Part shown: positions 9,716 to 23,858 of the stretch, piece after piece
Numbering within the stretch: the stretch's first letter is position 1
How the letters are laid out: the number at the start of each line of letters is the position of its first letter
Source of the DNA: Nostoc punctiforme PCC 73102
Lineage (GTDB): Bacteria; Cyanobacteriota; Cyanobacteriia; Cyanobacteriales; Nostocaceae
DNA: 32,000 bases
Direction of reading: 5' to 3'
Assembly: GCF_000020025.1 (NCBI RefSeq)
Contig: NC_010628.1
Location: 2,970,001-3,002,000, forward strand
The notes under the pieces: generated by a model
Seen by the model: the letters and a program-made list of their open reading frames with translations, nothing else
Told to the model about the DNA's origin: nothing
Database searches by the model: none
Program-made: the position numbers and the translations under genes

Positions 9716-9754
9716 ATATAATTAATTAAAACTAACTATTTTAATTAATTATAT
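9716..9754. promoter_or_regulatory. Perfect 16-bp AT-only inverted repeat (ATATAATTAATTAAAA-7nt-TTTTAATTAATTATAT)
   Basis: Arms at 9716-9731 and 9739-9754, read directly. It lies 51-89 nt upstream of the CHAT start codon and about 165 nt downstream of the regulator gene stop. Confidence 0.35.
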
Positions 9755-9916
9755 GAATGCGATCGCCACCCCATCCAAGTATTTTGATCGCCTTTCTCAT
9801 GTTTGTACAAATGACAACTAAGTGAATATACTAAGCCTAGAAAATAAGCTCAACTTTGTCACTAGCGAAATGTTGGGCTTTAAACTTATCAAAATGTGAG
9901 GTCGAGAAGCTGCAAA

Positions 9917-10552
9917 CTACAGCCTGACAATCCCTCGATTCAGTGCAGTGACTAGGGCTTGAGTCCGATCGCTAACGTTCAACTTTCCGAAAATATTATT
10001 GGTATGGAACCTGACGGTACTCTCAGCAATATTGAGGACATTGCTAATCTGCTGGTTATTCTTACCCTTGGCGATCAGGCGCAGCACTTCCAACTCACGA
10101 TCGCTCAATTCCTCACTACTCATCCGTTCAGCTAGCTTGGCTGCTATAGTTGGCGGAATATACTTTTGTCCTTTATGAACAGTGCGAATCGCATCCAAGA
10201 GTTCGTTCGGTTCCGCACCTTTAAGGAGATAGCCCTTTGCACCAGCCCGCAATCCGCGATAGATATCTTCATCGCCATCAAAGGTAGTCAACACAACGAT
10301 TCGGGCGTGTTTAAACTTAGCACAGATGGCTGCGATCGCATCAGCACCTTCCATCTTCGGCATTCGCAAATCCATCAGCGCCACATCAGGTTGATGTTGG
10401 TGGAAAAGTTCTAACGCTTCTCGCCCGTCGCCAGCATGGCCGATTACAGTCATATCTGACTCACATTGAAGAAACATTGTTAAAGCTTGTCCCAAGATGG
10501 GATGATCGTCAGCAAGTAGGATACGAATGACATTAGATTGACTCATAATCAT
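9917..10552 (-). CDS. Response regulator, NarL/LuxR family (REC + HTH)
   Basis: The receiver domain shows LLADDHP...ALMDLRMPKMEG...KGYLLK. The C-terminal LuxR-type HTH shows LSDRELEVLRLIAKGKNNQQISNVLNIAESTVRFHTNNIFGKL. The gene abuts the kinase stop codon. Confidence 0.9.
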   Translation of the reverse strand: MIMSQSNVIRILLADDHPILGQALTMFLQCESDMTVIGHAGDGREALELFHQHQPDVALMDLRMPKMEGADAIAAICAKFKHARIVVLTTFDGDEDIYRGLRAGAKGYLLKGAEPNELLDAIRTVHKGQKYIPPTIAAKLAERMSSEELSDRELEVLRLIAKGKNNQQISNVLNIAESTVRFHTNNIFGKLNVSDRTQALVTALNRGIVRL

Positions 10553-13339
10553 TTACTCTCGGTAGACTAACACTGAAACTTCTGTTCCCTGTCCTGGCGA
10601 ACTCTGAATTGTTAGTTTTGCCCCGATGCATTCAGCCCGTTCGCTCATGACTAAAAGCCCAAAGCTGTTGATAACAGATACACTGGCGATGTCAAACCCT
10701 TGTCCATCATCTTTGATTCGCAAGCTGCACTGGCTTTCTTGATACGCCAGTTCAATTTGGATTTCTCCAGCTTGGGCATATTTGAAGGCATTGGTTAATG
10801 CTTCTTGTCCAATGCGGAGTAGGTTATTTTCAACATCTGGAGACAAGGGGTATATCTCGCCTATTAATTGGCAGACAATATGTGTATTGCTAGGGGAAAA
10901 CATCTGTGTTGCGAAGCGATTGAGAGCATTAAAAATGTTGCCGTCCTCCAATAATTGAGAGCGTAATGCTTTGATCGAACGGCGTGCTTCAGTTAGCCCA
11001 GAATGAGCTAAGTCTCGCCCTGCTTTGATTAATTTCTGTGCTACTTCTATATCTGTCGTCAGTTTTCGTGAGGCGGTATCTAAGTGGACAATAACAACTG
11101 TGAAGGCTTGTGCTAAAGTATCGTGAATTTCCTGTGCCAAGCGGTTACGTTCTGCCAATACAGTTGCTTCTTCAGCCTGCTTACGACTAGTGATATCCTG
11201 TATTGCAGCCATCCTGATGGTACGCCCACGATATGACATGACTCTGGCTCTGATCTCAGCCGGAAATGTGCTTCCATCCTTACGCAGACAAACGGTTTCA
11301 TAAATTCCTTCATCTCCTGAGCGAATCTTCTGCATCACTTGTTCTCGATATTCAGGAGCAGTAAAATCCATGACACGCATACCAAGCAACTCCGAAAGTT
11401 CATAACCAAACATCTCAGCACAGGTTTGGTTAGTATCTAAAAGTATGCCTTGTTCGGTAATAGCGATCGCTTCAAATGTTGCCTCTGCCAACAGCCGAAA
11501 TCGCGTCTCGCTTTCTAGAAGTGCTACTTCTGCCTGCTTGCGTTCAGCGATTTCTCGTTGTAGCTCCAGGGTACGTTGAGTAACCTGTTGCTCTAAAACG
11601 GAATTATAATCAGCTAGGATCTTCTCTGCTTTTTTGCGTTCGGTAATATCAATACAAACAGTGAGCGCATATATTACTTTCCCTGATTCATCAAAAATTG
11701 GGGTGCTTAAAACTTCTATAGGGATAGTTTTATTAGGGTGGCGAAACTCCATATTATCAATGTGGACTGTTTTACCTACCAAAGAATACATAATTGGTAG
11801 TTCATCAGTAGGGTATAAGTAGTCAGTTTCAGCTAGATAAATTTGATAATATTCTGCTATCTTTTCGGGTTTGATAGATGGCAATAAGTCTACGCTGATT
11901 AATTTTTGCACAGCTCGATTATTATAGTAAATTTCCCCATACGGATCGTTTATCGAAATAGCTACAGGCACAGCATCAAGAAATTGCTTCAGGCGGGTTT
12001 CACTCTGCAATAAAGCCTTATTTAAATCCTGCATTTCCGAAAATTTTGCTTGGAGTTGATCCGCCATATTATTAAATGATCTGGCTAATTCCCCCAATTC
12101 ATCGGAACGCTCTATTTTTATTCTTTTTTCCCATTCACCTTGAGCAAGTGCTAAAGCTGATTTTTTTAAAGCTAGAACTGGTTCAGCAATCCACCGTAAA
12201 ATCAAAACACCGACAGCTACAGCCACTATCAAAGCAACAATACACAGCACAATAGTGGTGCGGGTATTAGCATTAATTTCTTCCATGAAGTCATTTTCTG
12301 GGACGACTACCACAATTAACCAGTCAAGTCCCCGATTATCTTGGAAGGGTAAAACTCGAATAAACTGCCGCTTACCATCTATCGAAAAATATAATTGCTG
12401 TGAGCTATTAATTGACTTAAATTCATTAAATTTACTTTTTAAATATTTACTAGTGCATTGTGTTTTTTTATCCTTACTATCTATAGCCAAAAATGGCTTA
12501 ATTCTATTTTCTGCTAATTGTGTTTTAAAATTATTTGAGTGGAAAGGCTTTTCATTAGTTGAGGTTGCTACCAATCTTCCAGAATGACGCTCAACAATAA
12601 AACTTATTCCTGTTTTACCAATTTTTAAATTTTGCAGAAAAGTGCCAATTTTAGATAAGTTTAAATTTGAGAGTAATACACCTTGCAAATTTCCCTGTTT
12701 ATCGTAAGCAGGCTGACTAGCAGCGATGTACAAAGCAATGCCAGAATTATGAGGATAAATTTCACTCCAAACTGGTCTTTGTTTTGCTATCGCTTTGTTA
12801 TACCAATTACGTCTTTGAGTATCATAAGGTTTGCCAAAATCCTTTATTCCCGTGCGTGTGCTTTGTTTATTAGTAGTATAAGTCCGCAAATTATACTTAG
12901 TTGATTTACCAGATGCTCTGATTGTCAAAGAGCCATCAGGAAATATTTCTGCTGAAATAAACTCTTTATTCGTATTTGCAAATCCAATTAGACTTACTTG
13001 ATTAAATACTTCTAACTGGTCAAAAAAATAATGTTCTAAGACGGTCAAATCTTGTACATCTAATTGACCAAGTTTAATAGCATTAGCATTATTCTGATTA
13101 ATTTGTTGGGGAGTTTCAAGAAAAGTATGCAGATTCTGCTGAACACGCTGGCTAATTTCACTTAGTAGCCGTGTGGCAATATTATTTACTGCTTTTTGCC
13201 CATTTTTGAATGAGAGATAACCTGTTAAACTCGCCACCGCTAAAATTTGCAGAATAAAGGGAATAATCAGAACGGTTCGCAGAGAAGGTTTAACGGGAAG
13301 AGAAAGAAAGTATTGAAGATATGATATTTTGTTAAACAA
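10553..13339 (-). CDS. Sensor histidine kinase: periplasmic Cache-like domain, HAMP, two PAS, HisKA_3, HATPase
   Basis: Two TM segments bracket a ~320-aa extracytoplasmic domain. HAMP is marked by SDELGELARSFNNMADQL and PAS regions by the DITERK and DITSRK ends. The H-box is ERNRLAQEIHDTLAQ and the ATPase carries the DDGQGF and G-rich motifs. Confidence 0.9.
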   Translation of the reverse strand: MFNKISYLQYFLSLPVKPSLRTVLIIPFILQILAVASLTGYLSFKNGQKAVNNIATRLLSEISQRVQQNLHTFLETPQQINQNNANAIKLGQLDVQDLTVLEHYFFDQLEVFNQVSLIGFANTNKEFISAEIFPDGSLTIRASGKSTKYNLRTYTTNKQSTRTGIKDFGKPYDTQRRNWYNKAIAKQRPVWSEIYPHNSGIALYIAASQPAYDKQGNLQGVLLSNLNLSKIGTFLQNLKIGKTGISFIVERHSGRLVATSTNEKPFHSNNFKTQLAENRIKPFLAIDSKDKKTQCTSKYLKSKFNEFKSINSSQQLYFSIDGKRQFIRVLPFQDNRGLDWLIVVVVPENDFMEEINANTRTTIVLCIVALIVAVAVGVLILRWIAEPVLALKKSALALAQGEWEKRIKIERSDELGELARSFNNMADQLQAKFSEMQDLNKALLQSETRLKQFLDAVPVAISINDPYGEIYYNNRAVQKLISVDLLPSIKPEKIAEYYQIYLAETDYLYPTDELPIMYSLVGKTVHIDNMEFRHPNKTIPIEVLSTPIFDESGKVIYALTVCIDITERKKAEKILADYNSVLEQQVTQRTLELQREIAERKQAEVALLESETRFRLLAEATFEAIAITEQGILLDTNQTCAEMFGYELSELLGMRVMDFTAPEYREQVMQKIRSGDEGIYETVCLRKDGSTFPAEIRARVMSYRGRTIRMAAIQDITSRKQAEEATVLAERNRLAQEIHDTLAQAFTVVIVHLDTASRKLTTDIEVAQKLIKAGRDLAHSGLTEARRSIKALRSQLLEDGNIFNALNRFATQMFSPSNTHIVCQLIGEIYPLSPDVENNLLRIGQEALTNAFKYAQAGEIQIELAYQESQCSLRIKDDGQGFDIASVSVINSFGLLVMSERAECIGAKLTIQSSPGQGTEVSVLVYRE

Positions 13340-17072: not shown

Positions 17073-18389
17073 ATGAATATCTTATCCAGCCAAAAATTTC
17101 GCTTCACAGTAGGTTGTGCTGCCTTATTATTTGTCAGTTTAGCCAGTAGCCATCTATATACTCAGTCAAAAAATAAACAGCTAGTCCAACAAAATCAGTC
17201 CTTTACTCAGCAAGAAAATTCTGCCCCAGTTCCATCACAAATTTCCCTCACCTCAAATTTCCAAAATCCTTTTGTTGCTCAACAAATATCTGATGAAATT
17301 ATCGATAAGCAAAACGCTTTTTTACCTCAGCAGAATTTGCTAGCCGCATCTGCACCCTATCCAGTTGTCGATGAGTTCAAAAAATATAAATTTAGTATTA
17401 ATGGCAGCCAAGTTGTTAGCCCAGGAAAACTGCCAAGTAGTAAGGTTAACTTCAATCAAGGAGATTTATTAACTGTTCTAGTTAATACTAGAAAATATTT
17501 TCAAGATTACTCTTCAGAAGACCCAGATATTCTCCGTACAGGAATGCTTGCGACTCAAGGAGTAACTATACCAGATGTTCTCAACACTTTGAATTTCATG
17601 ATTGCTGTATTAAAGGAGGATATTGCTAATAATCGAGCTACTCGTTTGCAAGATCCTAACTTTATCAATACAAATTTTCGAGTTATTAAATGGTCTCCTT
17701 ATAACCCAAAGAATAAACAGCAAAAACAATTACGAATTACCAAATATGCTGTCTTTACTCATCCCGGTTCTCGGGAGAAAACCTCTACTTTTAATACACC
17801 AATTTACAGCTTAAAAGACAACGCTAATAACGATAAATTCTATACAAAATACACCAAGCAGGATGTGTTATCAGGTATTTATGAACCAGGTGGTAAAGAA
17901 TTTGGAAAAGTTACCAGTCTCGCTTATCTAACCAGAAATGGTTTAGAAGAAGCAATTATGGAAGGAACAATATTAATTAATTTTAAAGATGGTTATAAGG
18001 CATTTTTTAATGTAGACAGAAATAATGGAATGTCTTATATTCGCGGATTGAAGGCAACAGCACAAAAACGTTATTGGTATTTTAGAGAAGTTGATGCTAT
18101 TAAAGGCTATGGATATAAAATAGATGCAAAAATTTCTATCAAACCCGGAGTTACTTTTGCAGGAGATGTTTTAAATATTGGTTTAGGTAAAGTGGTTGTG
18201 ATTGAACATACTCAAGGTGGTCGCAAACATCTACGAATGGGAGTTATCGCTGATACAGGTGGAGCCTTTTTACCCAATCTTTATCAACTCGATTTTTTGG
18301 CAGGAGTTTTTAATAATAAAAAAGAATTTGGGCAGAATGTTAGCCAATTACCTGACTATGCTACAGCATATTTTTTAGTCAAAAAGTAA
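17073..18389 (+). CDS. MltA-like lytic murein transglycosylase (3D-domain-like C-terminus), secreted
   Basis: Signal/anchor GCAALLFVSLASS. The C-terminal MGVIADTGGAFLPNLYQLDFLAG resembles the D-x-GGAI...D-x-F-x-G motif of MltA/3D domains. The gene lies 38 nt after murG. Confidence 0.5.
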   Translation: MNILSSQKFRFTVGCAALLFVSLASSHLYTQSKNKQLVQQNQSFTQQENSAPVPSQISLTSNFQNPFVAQQISDEIIDKQNAFLPQQNLLAASAPYPVVDEFKKYKFSINGSQVVSPGKLPSSKVNFNQGDLLTVLVNTRKYFQDYSSEDPDILRTGMLATQGVTIPDVLNTLNFMIAVLKEDIANNRATRLQDPNFINTNFRVIKWSPYNPKNKQQKQLRITKYAVFTHPGSREKTSTFNTPIYSLKDNANNDKFYTKYTKQDVLSGIYEPGGKEFGKVTSLAYLTRNGLEEAIMEGTILINFKDGYKAFFNVDRNNGMSYIRGLKATAQKRYWYFREVDAIKGYGYKIDAKISIKPGVTFAGDVLNIGLGKVVVIEHTQGGRKHLRMGVIADTGGAFLPNLYQLDFLAGVFNNKKEFGQNVSQLPDYATAYFLVKK

Positions 18390-18449
18390 GGAAATTTCAA
18401 AGAATAGATTATCCAGTAGCGATTGTCTTGGAAGCCAATATTGTTACTA

Positions 18450-19529
18450 CTAGGACTTACGCATTGACAGGAAATGGACTATGTGCAACCAAGCCCACCT
18501 GTTGTTTAAGGTGTTCCAGAATGAAGTCACGAGCACTGCTGTTGAGATAAATTTCTTTGGAGTTCGTACCAATTTTATTAACTCTTTCGCTCGCATTAAC
18601 TCTAATTGAGTAAACGCACGGATAGCACTAAAAAAATGAGTTTTTATTGCCTCAGTTGTTCCTACCATCCGTTGTTCAATTCCACATACCTGTTTAATGG
18701 CTCTGTGGTAACATTCAATCCCCCAATGAATTGAATGTAATGCCTTAAATTCAACCCTAGTAATTGCAATTAGTGCATCTTCTTCTGCTTCTGGTAAAAA
18801 TATGATACAGTATCTTGGCTCTCCGTTTTTGTTCGCGTTCGCGCAGCGTGTCGCTTTGCGACTCAGCGTCTCCCCTTGGGAGAAGATTTTTTGAAATACT
18901 TTCACTTTCCCAAAACTTTTTAGATGCACAATTAAGCCTTCTTCGGGTATTTCTAGATTTTTGGACTTGGGTATAATCTCGACCATTGATGGAACATGAG
19001 CGGTTTTTAGCTATGCCCATAAAAAGCCCTAATCCCTTATCTCTAATAAATCTTAGGTTTTCGCGGCTTGAATACCAAGCGTCTGTAGTCACAGTATAAG
19101 GTTGCATTCCCCAAGCCAAAACTTCTGTAATCATTTCTCTTAAATAATCATTTTTAGTTTTACCTTCCAGTTTGTTGTAGATGCATAAGGTACAGGTACA
19201 GATTTACCCGATGGGTCGGTGTAGTACAATGTTATTAACTGAATACTCTTGACTACACGATGATGTTTTCCTGACCAAAAATAACCGATTAATTCTGTTA
19301 GATTTGGGTCACTATAAGGCTTGTCAATTACTGTATCGTCTCCACTTAATGTTCCACCGCTCAAATTGATATCTGGTCTTAACTCGATAAATAAATCCTT
19401 GGGTTCATACTGCTCCCGTAACAAAAATCTATTGACACTATCATGAGATAAATCTTCCAGAATTCTTGCCAAACGTACACATCCTGGGTATTTTGATTCT
19501 GCCAGGAGAAATAGAGTGTAAGTGTTCAA
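18450..19529 (-). pseudogene. DDE transposase, split into three frames
   Basis: Three consecutive ORFs: NTYTLFLLAES...SGDDTVIDKPYS...; then EMITEVLAWGMQPYTVTTDAWYSSRENLRFIRDKG...; then ...HSIHWGIECYHRAIKQVCGIE.... Frame changes lie near 19180-19195 and 18960-18990. Only a TTG start is available. A GC-rich ~57-nt in-frame insert at ~18826-18882 encodes SQGETLSRKATRCANANKNG. Confidence 0.8.
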
Positions 19530-19699
19530 GTCACACTTTGCTGTTGATAGCTTAGTAGTAGCTCTGATAATCCCAACCCCAGATAGAGCAACATAGGTAT
19601 TATCCGTTTTTTGCAGCCCCTAAGGATTAGCGATCGCATCTGTCTTTCTTTGTTAGTTCTAATGCATAGCTTGCACTCATTGTCAATCCATAAGTCCTA
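18451..19699 (-). mobile_element. IS element (IS4/IS701-like DDE transposase), 1,249 bp, with its own diverged right end
   Basis: Left IR at 18451-18486. The internal right-end copy GCATAGCTTGCACTCATTGTCAATCCATAAGTCCTA (19664-19699) matches the outer 19 nt of the IR at 17/19, and its inner half is diverged. No ACTAC follows it. Confidence 0.7.
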
Positions 19700-19912
19700 A
19701 AAAAATTCTCTGAAGTTGTTGGAGAAACGGTTTCAGCCATTGCGTGGCGGCTGGTGACAGCTTCGCTACTTTCCCCCATCAAGGAAGCTTGACTAGCTAA
19801 CGATGTCAACCTCCTCAATGGTGGGCGGCTAGGCAAAAAGCTCAGAAGTCTTTTCCATCAGCGCGGTGCCTTCAATTCATGGGCAGACAGCCTACAGACG
19901 AGCCAATCAGGC

Positions 19913-20752
19913 TTACAGCATGGGAAGCACGCGGGGACGAGATCCGGTCGGGAAGGCTGCGTCGATTCGATCGAGTTCGGTTTGGGTCAGATTGAGTTCC
20001 CCGGCTCCCGCGTTTTCAGCGGCGTGTTTGGGGTTGGATGCTTTGGGGATTGCGAAGAGCGAGGAATGCCGCACCAGAAATCGGAGCGCGACTTGGCGAG
20101 GGGTGGCGTTATGGGCGGCGGCGATTTCCTGTAGTACGCGACCTGCGGTTGTGCGCGAGCTGGGAAAATCCCCATGACCGAACGGGCTGTATGCGACTAC
20201 GGCGACCCCATGCTTCTCACACCAGGGGATCACAGCGTGTTCGATCGCTCTCTGTCTCAAATGGTAAAGGACTTGATTACAGACGAGAGAACCCTCGCCA
20301 GCGATCTTCTGGACTGCTTCAAGGTCAGGCACATCGAAGTTGCTCACGCCCCAGCAGAGAATCTTCCCCTCGTGCTGAAGCTGCTCGAAGGCAGCGATCG
20401 TCTCCTCCAGTGGGTGTTGACCGCGCCAGTGCAACAGATAAGAGTCCAGCCGATCGGTATGAAGTCGAGCGAGCGATTTCTCGCAGGCTATGATCGTCCC
20501 TCTCCGAGAAGCATTTCCAGGAAGAACCTTGGAAACCAGGAAAACCCGATCGCGTCGTCCAGCGATCGCCTCGGCGACCACCTCCTCGGCACTGCCGTAC
20601 ATCTCCGCCGTGTCGATATGGGTCATGCCGAGATCGAGTCCTTGGCGCAAAGCGGCGATCGCAGAGGCGCGGTCACCGTTGTCGATGTACCAGGTTCCTT
20701 GACCGATCGCTGCCACCTCGCGCTGCGTGGAACCAAATCGATGCTGTTCCAT
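19913..20752 (-). CDS. Aldo/keto reductase
   Basis: Motifs GTWYI, HIDTAEMYG, LVSKV, LDSYLLHW, GVSNF, AYSPFG and IPKASNPKHAAEN; AGGAGG lies upstream of the ATG. The gene is very GC-rich: the hand-counted line 20101-20160 has 40/60 G+C. Confidence 0.9.
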   Translation of the reverse strand: MEQHRFGSTQREVAAIGQGTWYIDNGDRASAIAALRQGLDLGMTHIDTAEMYGSAEEVVAEAIAGRRDRVFLVSKVLPGNASRRGTIIACEKSLARLHTDRLDSYLLHWRGQHPLEETIAAFEQLQHEGKILCWGVSNFDVPDLEAVQKIAGEGSLVCNQVLYHLRQRAIEHAVIPWCEKHGVAVVAYSPFGHGDFPSSRTTAGRVLQEIAAAHNATPRQVALRFLVRHSSLFAIPKASNPKHAAENAGAGELNLTQTELDRIDAAFPTGSRPRVLPML

Positions 20753-20781
20753 ACCTGTCCTCCTGATTAACGCTCCGAGTC

Positions 20782-20966
20782 GAATGGCACTAAGAAAAGG
20801 GAAAATCGTTGAGGCAGCAGGGGTGCAGAGGAGCGGAGGAGCAGGGGAGAAAGAAGAAGTTTAAGGCATACGAACGGATATTTAGAAATTCCCCCCTGCA
20901 CCCCTGCACCCGTGCCCCTCTGCAATCCTTACACTGCGTACCCTTCAGCTTAACTTAGTGCCATTC
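20782..20966. mobile_element. 185-bp MITE nested in the cargo operon
   Basis: Perfect 13-bp terminal inverted repeats GAATGGCACTAAG (20782-20794) and CTTAGTGCCATTC (20954-20966). They are flanked by an 11-bp direct repeat CGCTCCGAGTC (20771-20781 and 20967-20977). The interior forms a G-rich/C-rich imperfect hairpin. Confidence 0.7.
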
Positions 20967-20978
20967 CGCTCCGAGTCC

Positions 20979-21541
20979 TCACACCATCTGCCGTACCTGC
21001 CCTGCATGGCTGAACAGCTCGATCATTTCCCGGTTGAAGGCTGGGATGTCGTCTGGCTTGCGGCTCGACACGAGGTTGCGATCAACTACAACTTCCCGAT
21101 CTACCCACTGGGCACCTGCGTTCTGGAGATCGGTCTTGAGCGACGGCCACGAGGTGAGCCGCCGTCCGCGCACCACATCTGCCTCGATCAGAGTCCAAGG
21201 TCCGTGGCAGATCACTGCTACCGGCTTGTCAGTATCGAAGAAGGACTTTATAAACTCGATCGCCTTAGCTTTAGTCCGAAGTTGATCTGGATTGGCAACA
21301 CCACCGGGAAGCAGGAGGGCATCATAGTCGGCTGGATTTACTTTATCGAGGGGGACATGTACCGGGAAAAATCCCCTTTGTCATAATGGTTCCAGCCCTG
21401 AACGCGATCGCTCTTAGGTGAAATGATGTGGGTTTGAGCACCTGCTGACTCAAGGGCTTGCTTGGGTTGAGCCATTTCAACTTGCTCAAAGCCATCTGTA
21501 ACCAGAATGGCAACTTTCTTATTTGTGAGATCTTCTGTCAT
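20979..21541 (-). pseudogene. DJ-1/PfpI family protein (glyoxalase III / protease-like), single frameshift
   Basis: The N-terminal KKVAILVTDGFEQVEMAQP...WNHYDKGD and the remainder FPVHVPLDKVNPADYDALLLPGGVANPDQL...AVICHGPWTLIEADV... are in different frames. The shift maps to the T5C3 tract on the coding strand (plus-strand GGGAAAAA at 21364-21371). Confidence 0.8.
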
Positions 21542-21595
21542 CTCTACCTCCTAAAGTGTTGGCTAGACTTGGTTTTTTCGTGTTCTTATGGGGTT

Positions 21596-22774
21596 TTAGG
21601 CAGCCTGACCTGGCTTGAGCACGATCTTGATACAGTTGTCCTTCTTGTGCTTGAAAATTTCGTAGCCGTGCGGTGCTTGTTCTAGTGGCAGACGATGGGT
21701 GATTACAAAAGATGGGTCGATATCGCCATTTTGGACGCGATCGAGTAACGGGCGCAAGTACTTATGAACGTGCGTTTGTCCCATTTTAAATGTTAAGGCT
21801 TTGTTCATGGCAGCACCCATCGGTATCTTGTCTACAAAGCCGCCGTAAACACCAGGAATTGACACAGTGCCACCTTTGCGACAGGCAACAATCACTTGCC
21901 TTAGGGCAGTGGGTCGGTCGGTTTCCATACGCACGGCTTGCTTTACCTGGTCGTAAAACGCATCTGGACCCGTACCGTGGGCTTCCATTCCCACAGCATC
22001 CATGCAAGCATCTGGACCGCGCCCACCGGTCATATCTTTGAGGGCTTCACCAACTTCAACTTCCTCATAGTTAAGGACTTCTGCCTTGCCGTCTTTCGCC
22101 ATCTGTAGGCGTTCGGGAACTCGATCGATAGCAATGACGCGCTCGGCACCTAGCATATATGCACTTCTAATGGCAAACTGTCCGACTGGACCGCAGCCCC
22201 AGATCGCTACAGTATCTCCTGGCTGGATATCGCAGTTTTCCGCTGCCATATAGCCAGTGGGGAAGATATCCGTCAGAAACAGGACTTGTTCGTCTGTTAG
22301 TCCATCAGGAATCTTGAATAAACCGACATCGGCAAAGGGAACGCGGGCATATTCAGCTTGACCTCCAGCATAGCCACCCATCATATGGGAGTAGCCGAAA
22401 AGACCAGATGGGGAATGACCCATGAGTTTTTCCGCTATCCAAGCGTTGGGGTTGGAGTTATCGCACAGCGACCACAAATCTTTTTGACAAAAGAAACAGG
22501 AGCCGCAGGAAATGGTAAAGGGAACGACAACGCGATCGCCTATCTTCACATTCTTGACGGCACTGCCTAGCTCGACCACCTCCCCCATAAATTCATGACC
22601 AAGGATGTCGCCCTTTTCCATCGTGGGGATGTAACCGTCATAAAGATGTAAATCAGAACCGCAAATCGCCGTTGACGTGATTTTAACAATCGCATCACGC
22701 GGATTGATGATTTTTGGATCGGGTACTGTATCAACTCGTACATCGTTAGCGCCGTGCCAGCAAAGTGCTTTCAT
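21596..22774 (-). CDS. Zinc-dependent alcohol dehydrogenase, formaldehyde-dehydrogenase-like subfamily
   Basis: Start [20 protein letters not shown], catalytic-Zn motif ICGSDLH...GHEFMGEV, structural-Zn motif CGSCFFCQ, and NAD-binding motif IWGCGPVG. Confidence 0.9.
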
Positions 22775-22779
22775 AATCT

Positions 22780-23283
22780 TTAACCTCCCTTTGGTTGACC
22801 TTCTGTTGTTGCAATCTCGCCTGCTTCCATCAGCATTTTGAAGCGGCGTAAATCATCTCCAATCTGCTGTTCTGGTTCTTCGCCGAAGAGTTTGGCAAAC
22901 ACAGATGCAATCGCACCACCAGGCGGGTTATATTCCGTGACGACCTTTACCTCTGTACCGCGATTGGCGGGTGCTGGCTGGAAGCGGACAGAACCAGAGT
23001 TATCAACATCTGCACCTTCAACCGAAGCCCAAGCAATCAATTCGTTTTCCCGATCTTCAATGATGTCTGCATCCCATTCAACACTTCCACCTAACACCCC
23101 ACTGGTCGTCCAGTGCGTTCGCGTAGCGTGTCCGGAGGACTCTCGCTTATTATTGTCTACTTTTACATCTTTGAGATGCTTCATGAAGCGCGGCAAGTTC
23201 CCAAAGTTATGCCAAAAGCGGTAGAGTTCCTCTGCTGGTTTGTTAATCGTTACCGTCTTTTCAACTTTAATTGGTTGGCTCAT
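22780..23283 (-). CDS. SRPBCC (cyclase/dehydrase, START-like) family protein
   Basis: [37 protein letters not shown]...[18 protein letters not shown]...VRFQPAP is typical of SRPBCC proteins. The start is set at the internal ATG (23281-23283) rather than the far-upstream start of the ORF track. Confidence 0.8.
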
Positions 23284-23858
23284 GTCTATTGTCTCCCGTG
23301 CTTGCTGTATGGTGCTTTGTTTATCGCAGTTTAGACAAACAAATTTGTTTGTCCAAACCCTAATACCAGGAGCGGAGAACAGTATAGGATAAAAGCTTAT
23401 TAGCAAGAGGCATGTAGAAGTCTCTTGAAAAAATTTACCCTTCGTATCAGCCTTCTAGACTACTAAAAAAATTAACTACTACAAATCAACACCTGAACCT
23501 TAAAGCTTTCAACTAAACCTAACCTCTAACTAAAGAATGAGATTGGTGTTAAGTTAGTTAGTTCTCGCTTGTATCTTGGCGTAATGCTAAAGAAGCTGTC
23601 ACCTATTGCAATCTAGACATTCAAACATAACTAGACAAGTGTTTCACTCAAGGATTTTTAGATGCTTAACTTTGCCGAGAATGTCTTCTTTTAGGCAAAG
23701 TATACTGTGGGAGTAGGCTCCCCAGCATGAGGCTTTGACCTATGCTAATTCATCCCGCTTCACTTCCCTTGAAGGCAATGCACATAGTCCATTTCCTGTC
23801 AATGCGTAAGTCCTAACTACAGCTAATTTAACGGTTAAAATCACGAATTACGAACTAT

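Follow-up and report, generated by a model that had tools for sequence, protein, structure and literature searches.

A block of GC-rich genes lies beside an insertion sequence (IS) in the chromosome of Nostoc punctiforme PCC 73102, and the locus raises the question of whether the IS and the genes arrived together as one transposon. The window analysed was a stretch of 32,000 nucleotides (assembly GCF_000020025.1, contig NC_010628.1, positions 2,970,001 to 3,002,000 of the forward strand), and coordinates given without another name refer to it. An initial annotation, made without database searches, had proposed that a 5,365-bp unit with perfect inverted ends was inserted here as one piece. Comparison with other genomes agreed with this proposal: the segment 18451-23815 is very probably a 5,365-bp transposon that belongs to the IS701 family and arose from a compound transposon. 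With its target duplications it spans 18446-23820.

Ends, target site and copies of the unit

The unit was bounded by a perfect inverted repeat of 37 nt (18451-18487 and 23779-23815), one nucleotide longer than the 36 nt first described, and none of 100 shuffles yielded a match. The pentamer ACTAC was confirmed directly outside both arms (Table 1). By itself, such a match of two 5-nt flanks has a chance of about 1/1000. The pair was read as a true target duplication because it was backed by the 5-bp duplications of the family, by a single ACTAT at the site in relatives, and by a second copy of the unit with a 5-bp duplication of its own.

The two termini were of two types: a complete 1249-bp IS on one side and a solo end of 37-54 nt, designated IR', on the other. 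The transposase orientation set 19699 as the transposase-proximal IS end (IRL) and 18451 as the transposase-distal end (IRR), so the distal end at 23815 was a second IRR-type end, and both outer termini are IRR-type. The outer 37 nt of IR' (23779-23815) were identical with IRR (37/37). The cargo between the ends is foreign, plasmid-type DNA and, as first described, GC-rich, with 50-59% GC against 32-40% in the flanks. No integrase or recombinase gene was found within the 5,365-bp unit in the list of open reading frames (ORFs) or in the domain search. The whole unit was thus enclosed by inverted IS termini with one IS-typical duplication. Since only one complete IS bordered the cargo, where a canonical compound transposon has two, the name compound-transposon-derived was preferred.

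The empty site, which the initial annotation had suggested looking for, was found in N. punctiforme UO1 (L139) and Nostoc sp. UIC 10630 (L140), at about 95% nucleotide identity. In both, the flanking genes were 197 bp apart, and neither IS nor cargo was present. When the unit and one ACTAC were removed from the window, the alignment placed a single ACTAT of the relatives opposite the window ACTAC. The pentamer was therefore native chromosome, duplicated on insertion. The empty site was established from homologs of the flanking genes; contigs with the exact flanking proteins represented the same strain, and these short read-assembly contigs ended about 30 nt into the repeat and held no empty site. 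The spacer of the empty site also contained a palindromic Nostoc repeat (L139/L140 9352-9462; AAAGACGCGATAAATCGCC...GGCGATTTATCGCGTCT) that was absent from the window spacer.

In a sister genome (L138, JGI 3300055348) the unit occupied the identical site, complete with its two ends and an ACTAC next to each. Cargo genes at this locus without the inverted repeats would have spoken against a transposon; in this genome the cargo was accompanied by both. Identity with the window was 98.5% and 99.2% in the flanks and 99.1% in the cargo, and this similarity fits vertical inheritance after a single insertion. The insertion predates the separation from the sister strain (about 99% identity) and took place after the separation from the strains of 95% identity. 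[quoted passage not shown] The distal end of L138 carried one substitution (GTAATTCCTA).

The search for further copies, also suggested initially, placed the unit in three other replicons. Plasmid1 of Nostoc sp. HK-01 carried the genes for aldo/keto reductase (AKR), PfpI, alcohol dehydrogenase (ADH), a second ADH, and SRPBCC at 94-98% identity; the cargo joined to IR' was 96-98% identical, with the SRPBCC upstream region continuing directly into this end, and no IS was present on the other side. Scaffold KE650771.1 of GCA_000447295.1 (L145) held an 8201-bp version with an identical IR' (37/37) and an intact transposase. A stretch of 203 bp was equal to window 23613-23815, and the 195-bp spacer and the spacer-IS junction were the same. 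The cargo of this copy was a mosaic of an SRPBCC fragment, a paralogous SRPBCC-ADH-ADH set, an MRJP gene, and PfpI-AKR at 97-98%. Plasmid3 of Scytonema sp. NIES-4073 held a 4259-bp version with a 72-nt remnant of IRR on one side and IR' on the other; its TAATT duplication was perfect (L165 2791-2795 and 7055-7059). The IRR/IR' pair has thus bounded a unit at no fewer than two independent target sites with perfect 5-bp duplications, which is the strongest evidence that both ends work together. With the empty site in relatives and the unit in these other contexts, the locus shows the features of insertion as a unit.

The flank of IR' was ATCTC in GCA_000447295.1 (L145 2767-2771) and ATCTG in HK-01 (L011 13587-13591). 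Chlorogloeopsis-like contigs had the cluster of genes at 95-96% identity but neither IR' nor AKR, so the cluster also exists outside the transposon.

The flanking genes converge, and the insertion therefore lay in their 3' spacer. The left neighbour (17073-18389) encoded a 438-aa hypothetical protein, and the right neighbour a NarL-type response regulator. The label MltA-like, first given to the left gene, could not be confirmed, as no Pfam or NCBIfam match was obtained for 17073-18389; the protein was named hypothetical or POLO box domain-containing in the sources and shared 81-100% identity across Nostoc.

Table 1. Features of the transposon and its borders in the window
Feature	Coordinates	Strand	Remarks
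Left 5-bp target-site duplication, ACTAC	18446..18450	.	Single ACTAT in relatives at the homologous position
Outer left end, transposase-distal IS end (IRR)	18451..18487	+	First 19 nt TAGGACTTACGCATTGACA, the family-wide terminus
IS701-family IS, 1249 bp	18451..19699	- (transposase strand)	Profile matches and alignment to intact copies
Transposase pseudogene	18457..19568	-	Alignment against intact copies
51-nt GC-rich in-frame insertion in transposase gene, small dispersed repeat	18832..18882	.	Absent from L145 and L149 copies
Inner transposase-proximal IS end (IRL)	19681..19699	-	TTACGC to TTATGG, two substitutions in an otherwise invariant 19-mer
Donor-DNA spacer between IS and cargo, 195 bp	19700..19894	.	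Common to L145 copy, absent from HK-01 plasmid
Cargo gene 1, AKR, 279 aa, intact	19913..20752	-	PF00248, E 2.6e-58; 98% identical to HK-01 plasmid
MITE, 185 bp, with 13-bp terminal inverted repeats GAATGGCACTAAG	20782..20966	.	Absent from HK-01 and L145 copies
Cargo gene 2, DJ-1/PfpI pseudogene, split into two ORFs	20979..21541	-	1-nt deletion in an A-run at about 21366
Cargo gene 3, zinc-dependent ADH, 392 aa, ACC80979.1	21596..22774	-	Domain search
Cargo gene 4, SRPBCC / cyclase-dehydrase family, 167 aa, ACC80980.1	22780..23283	-	Domain search
Distal end module IR'	23762..23815	-	54-nt core common to all four unit copies
Right 5-bp target-site duplication, ACTAC	23816..23820	.	Single ACTAT in relatives

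The insertion sequence and its subgroup

The IS was 93.8% identical with the intact copy in L145 and 91.5% identical with a stand-alone copy (L149). The ORF fragments of the window matched the IS701 model NF049921 of NCBIfam (E 3e-37 and 1e-25) and fell below its whole-protein cut-off only owing to the disruption of the gene; an intact relative, L058:940-2004, scored 381 against the cut-off of 250. Pfam matches to DDE_5 and DDE_Tnp_1 were also obtained, which placed the enzyme among the DDE transposases of the IS701 family. The closest intact homolog, P0121, came from GCA_000447295.1 and was 95% identical, and more distant relatives on plasmids were annotated as the IS701-like ISCysp20/21 family.

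Alignment of the transposase gene with intact copies located a 1-nt deletion at about 19184/19185, a 1-nt insertion at about 18962, and, near the C-terminus, a 2-nt deletion with a 1-nt insertion. The unit is now non-autonomous, and probably immobile unless a related transposase acts in trans. With IS-type ends, cargo and no functional transposase, it has the properties of a mobile insertion cassette (MIC); of the IS, 109 bp remain in the L138 copy and 72 nt in that of Scytonema. Part of the 51-nt insertion in the gene recurred at 97% on a plasmid of Nostoc sp. UHCC 0870, and a related 18-mer (17/18) was present at 23115-23132 within the SRPBCC gene. We take this insertion to resemble the dispersed repeats of very small size known from Nostoc genomes.

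The inner end, IRL, matched the terminal 19-mer at 17 of 19 positions, with C-to-T at position 10 and C-to-G at position 12. The observation that this end is not followed by ACTAC was correct, the next bases being AAAAA; the divergence first ascribed to it was mostly normal asymmetry of the IS ends plus the two point substitutions. The stand-alone IS had the canonical 19-mer at both ends without these substitutions. Both changes were common to the window and the composite of GCA_000447295.1, which had one more, and these common derived changes indicate a single origin of the composite. We infer that the substitutions would reduce use of the inner end, disfavour movement of the IS only, and lock IS and cargo together.

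Searching species genomes for the 19-nt terminus TAGGACTTACGCATTGACA gave at least 120 loci (L018-L137), and PCC 73102 was not among the matches listed, to which the following results refer. The 19-mer was exactly conserved in hundreds of ISs and MITEs of Nostocales, Stigonema, Microcoleus, Leptolyngbya, and Chroococcales, and also of giant sulfur bacteria, the Beggiatoaceae (Parabeggiatoa, Halobeggiatoa, Thioploca, and Thiomargarita), and other Gammaproteobacteria, with Methylobacter, Contendobacter, and Sansalvadorimonas among the hosts, while the interiors of the ISs and MITEs diverged after about nt 19-20. An exact terminus in such divergent hosts points to spread of one IS701 subgroup across phyla. 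Where both ends were contained in one locus, at least 11 IS or MITE pairs had a perfect 5-bp duplication; these were MITEs of 80-310 bp and ISs of 1.1-1.26 kb. The MITEs of Thiomargarita described in PMC4853749 are of other types.

L149, the intact stand-alone copy belonging to this IS species, was flanked by an AGCAT duplication. In the window, a 93-bp MITE at 332-424 had ends CAGGACTTACGCAA... and ...TTGCGTAAGTCCTA that equal the terminal motif of the IS, with a TTTAT duplication at 327-331 and 425-429; from this MITE it follows that the subgroup was active elsewhere in the PCC 73102 genome. In total, at least 14 other copies or MITEs of the subgroup had 5-bp duplications. A different length in other copies would have made the ACTAC match look fortuitous, and the length found was 5 bp. 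Duplications of 5 bp are also reported for ISAba11, an IS701-family element of about 1.1 kb (PMC7885321).

The ends were compared with the signature ---YACT-Y--YR (PMC2266710). The ends TAGGACTTACGCA showed ACT (positions 5-7) and YR (positions 12-13), with G instead of Y at position 4 and A instead of Y at position 9. According to its own paper, this consensus is not representative of the whole IS701 family (PMC2266710).

A further element with cargo was contained in the metagenome contig L146 (JGI 3300031520; 9749-11867). It consisted of an IS of 79% identity whose inner end, at 10967, was mutated, together with a SnoaL_2 gene and, at 11867, a third end that was perfect, and TAGTT was duplicated outside the outer pair (9749 and 11867). 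L146 is a more distant, independent relative that carries cargo in the same pattern as the window unit.

Origin of the distal end and rival explanations

Two origins had been offered for the distal end: a surrogate right end, or the remnant outer end of a second, inverted IS copy. An ad hoc surrogate was ruled out because IR' matches IRR to nt 37-40, and other family members diverge after nt 19-20. The remnant is the better reading, and on the present comparisons IR' probably has this origin. A truncated second IS is the most economical source, since IS remnants of 109 nt (L138) and 72 nt (Scytonema) were seen directly.

An alternative is that IR' was never part of a second full IS and stems from the terminus of a MITE, or a sister IS, that happened to border the gene cluster. 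Many MITEs have the same terminus, and the homology of IR' with IRR ends at about nt 40, where the next 14 nt are conserved among IR' copies only; nor was a copy of the unit with a complete second IS ever found. The last two points count at the same time against the remnant origin. The alternative is nevertheless rather unlikely in view of the 37 nt identical to the IRR of this very IS species, a stretch over which other members have long diverged, and of the deletions to 72-109 nt in the Scytonema plasmid and L138. It concerns the origin of the end only, and the unit would work identically. The segment 23284-23815 was also considered as a MITE; a second IS-end-like sequence was sought near the SRPBCC promoter region and none was found, and the greater part of the segment, 23284-23635, was upstream sequence native to the gene cluster. 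With 25-35-mers specific to IR' or to IRR, two metagenome scans gave no match.

With IR' taken as the remnant of a second IS, insertion can be described as follows. The DDE transposase, then intact, would have paired IRR at 18451 with IR' at 23815, and the segment between them would have been transferred from a plasmid-type donor. A 5-bp staggered cut at ACTAC in the 3' spacer of the convergent genes, followed by repair, would have duplicated the pentamer, and the mutated inner IRL would keep IS and cargo moving as one. A wider proposal, which we regard as speculative and unlikely, is that this is a recurrent route of the small IS701 subgroup, in which a solo outer end is fixed, the inner end is silenced, and the element spreads on plasmids and chromosomes across genera. 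The L146 element, with its mutated inner end and TAGTT duplication, hints at a repeat of that route.

Several other observations weigh against insertion by transposition. The case for it is comparative throughout. The window transposase is a pseudogene with at least four indels and the 51-nt insertion, and only one copy of this IS was found for this genome, an exact-protein look-up of the window IS ORF having returned this locus only. Classical IS701 elements are larger (1.4-1.55 kb) and have 4-bp duplications (PMC2266710), and the subgroup, with 5 bp and 1116-1261 bp, lacks these traits. The copy of GCA_000447295.1 has no duplication, its flanks being ATCTC and ACTAC, and its IRR flank and the IR' flank of the window both read TGTAGT inward (L145 10973-10978; window 23816-23821). 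ACTAC also flanks two unrelated family members.

Such flank coincidences are possibly due to chance, to a mild target preference, or to copies at different sites having recombined. A real target preference may lie behind the recurring (T)GTAGT flank; over 134 ends, a preference for ACTA/TAGT or ACTAC was not adopted, with 2 observed against 0.3 expected and up to 3 in background windows. Read outward from the same 134 ends, C was nearly absent at +1, G was rare at +5, and T was strongly enriched at +6 and +7 (66% at +7). This composition suggests an A(A)-N5-(T)T-like target preference, to which the window site is a poor fit.

Stepwise assembly in place, in which an IS or MITE inserted first at ACTAC and the cargo was added later by recombination with a plasmid, was considered improbable. 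Family MITEs with two similar ends do exist, internal deletions and rearrangements of the IS occur, and the cargo is a mosaic between copies. However, copies in other replicons have the same junctions, of cargo with IR' and of cargo through spacer to IRL, and the same IRL substitutions, so the architecture predates arrival. In addition, no insertion intermediate was shown among the relatives at the locus, and in the Scytonema copy this pair of ends is enclosed by a separate duplication.

One-ended transposition through a fortuitous surrogate end downstream was judged highly improbable. Units of the ISEcp1/IS1380 type use variable, poorly matching surrogate ends that are picked for each event. 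The window unit is similar in that a single complete IS, with no second transposase copy, mobilised adjacent genes and its own proximal end was bypassed. It differs in that a fixed, exact end is reused: surrogate ends are only weakly similar and vary by event, whereas IR' equals IRR far past the 19-nt family core and, with its 54-nt core, bounds four unit copies in four replicons. The surrogate end was rejected on this basis.

That ACTAC is coincidental or was carried in, with arrival by homologous or site-specific recombination, is hardly credible: a 5-nt match is weak evidence by itself and ACTAC occurs next to the IRR in the GCA_000447295.1 copy as well as beside two family members that are unrelated, but the pentamer is native with a single ACTAT in relatives, the unit lacks an integrase or recombinase gene, 5 bp is the signature length of the family, and the enrichment of ACTAC is compatible with chance.

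Known systems, cargo and later changes

In the compound transposons Tn10 and Tn5, inverted IS copies bracket the cargo. The window unit resembles them in that its outer termini are the same IS end type in inverted orientation, an IS-typical duplication flanks the whole, the cargo is unrelated to transposition, and the inner end is less fit than the outer. It differs in having one complete IS, with the second reduced to a 37-54-nt end, and in belonging to the IS701 family with 5-bp duplications, where those of Tn10 and Tn5 are IS4/IS10/IS50 with 9 bp. Transporter ISs (tIS) and MICs, for example the IS231-related MIC231, carry passenger genes between IS-type ends. The derivatives of the window, L138 and Scytonema without a working transposase would, like MICs, need transposase in trans. 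The ends of tIS and MICs are normally one IRL and one IRR; in contrast, the window unit keeps an internal mutated IRL and both outer ends are IRR-type, which argues for a compound-transposon origin. ISAba11 and ISCysp20/ISCysp21 (names of the Prokaryotic Genome Annotation Pipeline, PGAP) are similar in their size of about 1.1-1.25 kb, single DDE transposase, and AT-rich 5-bp duplications (PMC7885321), and differ in being simple ISs without cargo.

In the searchable literature, neither this element nor any IS701 cargo transposon of Nostoc was found described. The unit is a genuine example of a fairly ordinary kind of mobile element, now decayed, and current views of transposon biology are not overturned by it. 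It shows cleanly, and in a way that can be dated, how an IS brought plasmid genes into a model cyanobacterium's chromosome, and stages of decay are visible, from an intact to a frameshifted transposase and then to IS remnants of 109 nt and 72 nt. It also demonstrates that a cargo of several genes can be carried by small elements of the IS701 family that make 5-bp duplications, and suggests that point mutations in the inner end may be a simple way for such units to become stable.

The initial annotation had counted four cargo genes. Three of them were intact; the PfpI gene was a frameshifted pseudogene, and a 185-bp MITE was present in addition. The intact PfpI ortholog of HK-01 passed TIGR01382. 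The ADH was nearest to the glutathione-independent formaldehyde dehydrogenase model, well below its cut-off, and the AKR was nearest to the DkgB and methylglyoxal reductase models, also below cut-off. Going by family names alone, the cargo looks like a set for detoxification of reactive aldehydes and carbonyls. This cargo of aldehyde and carbonyl enzymes is 95-98% identical among distant heterocystous cyanobacteria, which the transposon helps to explain. For the spacer at 19700-19894, the best matches covered only about 60 nt at 84-85% and lay on Calothrix plasmids.

Changes after arrival comprised the frameshifts in transposase and PfpI and the insertion of the MITE. From its absence in the HK-01 and L145 copies, the 185-bp MITE landed between AKR and PfpI after cargo capture. 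It was flanked by an unusually long direct repeat of 11 bp (CGCTCCGAGTC, 20771-20781 and 20967-20977), and copies of 81-100% identity were dispersed on many plasmids of Nostoc, Tolypothrix, and Microchaete. A contig of Logan SRR21010785 (L153 1-2034) was 98.8% identical to window 18451-20966, comprising IS, spacer, AKR, and MITE, and continued past the MITE into unrelated DNA with a DUF1822 gene; this reflects either a related strain in which the parts are arranged differently or a join made in assembly through the repeat. The HK-01 plasmid carried an insertion of its own in the SRPBCC upstream region, opposite window 23669: a 480-bp MITE-like element (L011 12957-13436) with ends TGTGATTT... 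and ...AAATCACA and a TTAA-type duplication.

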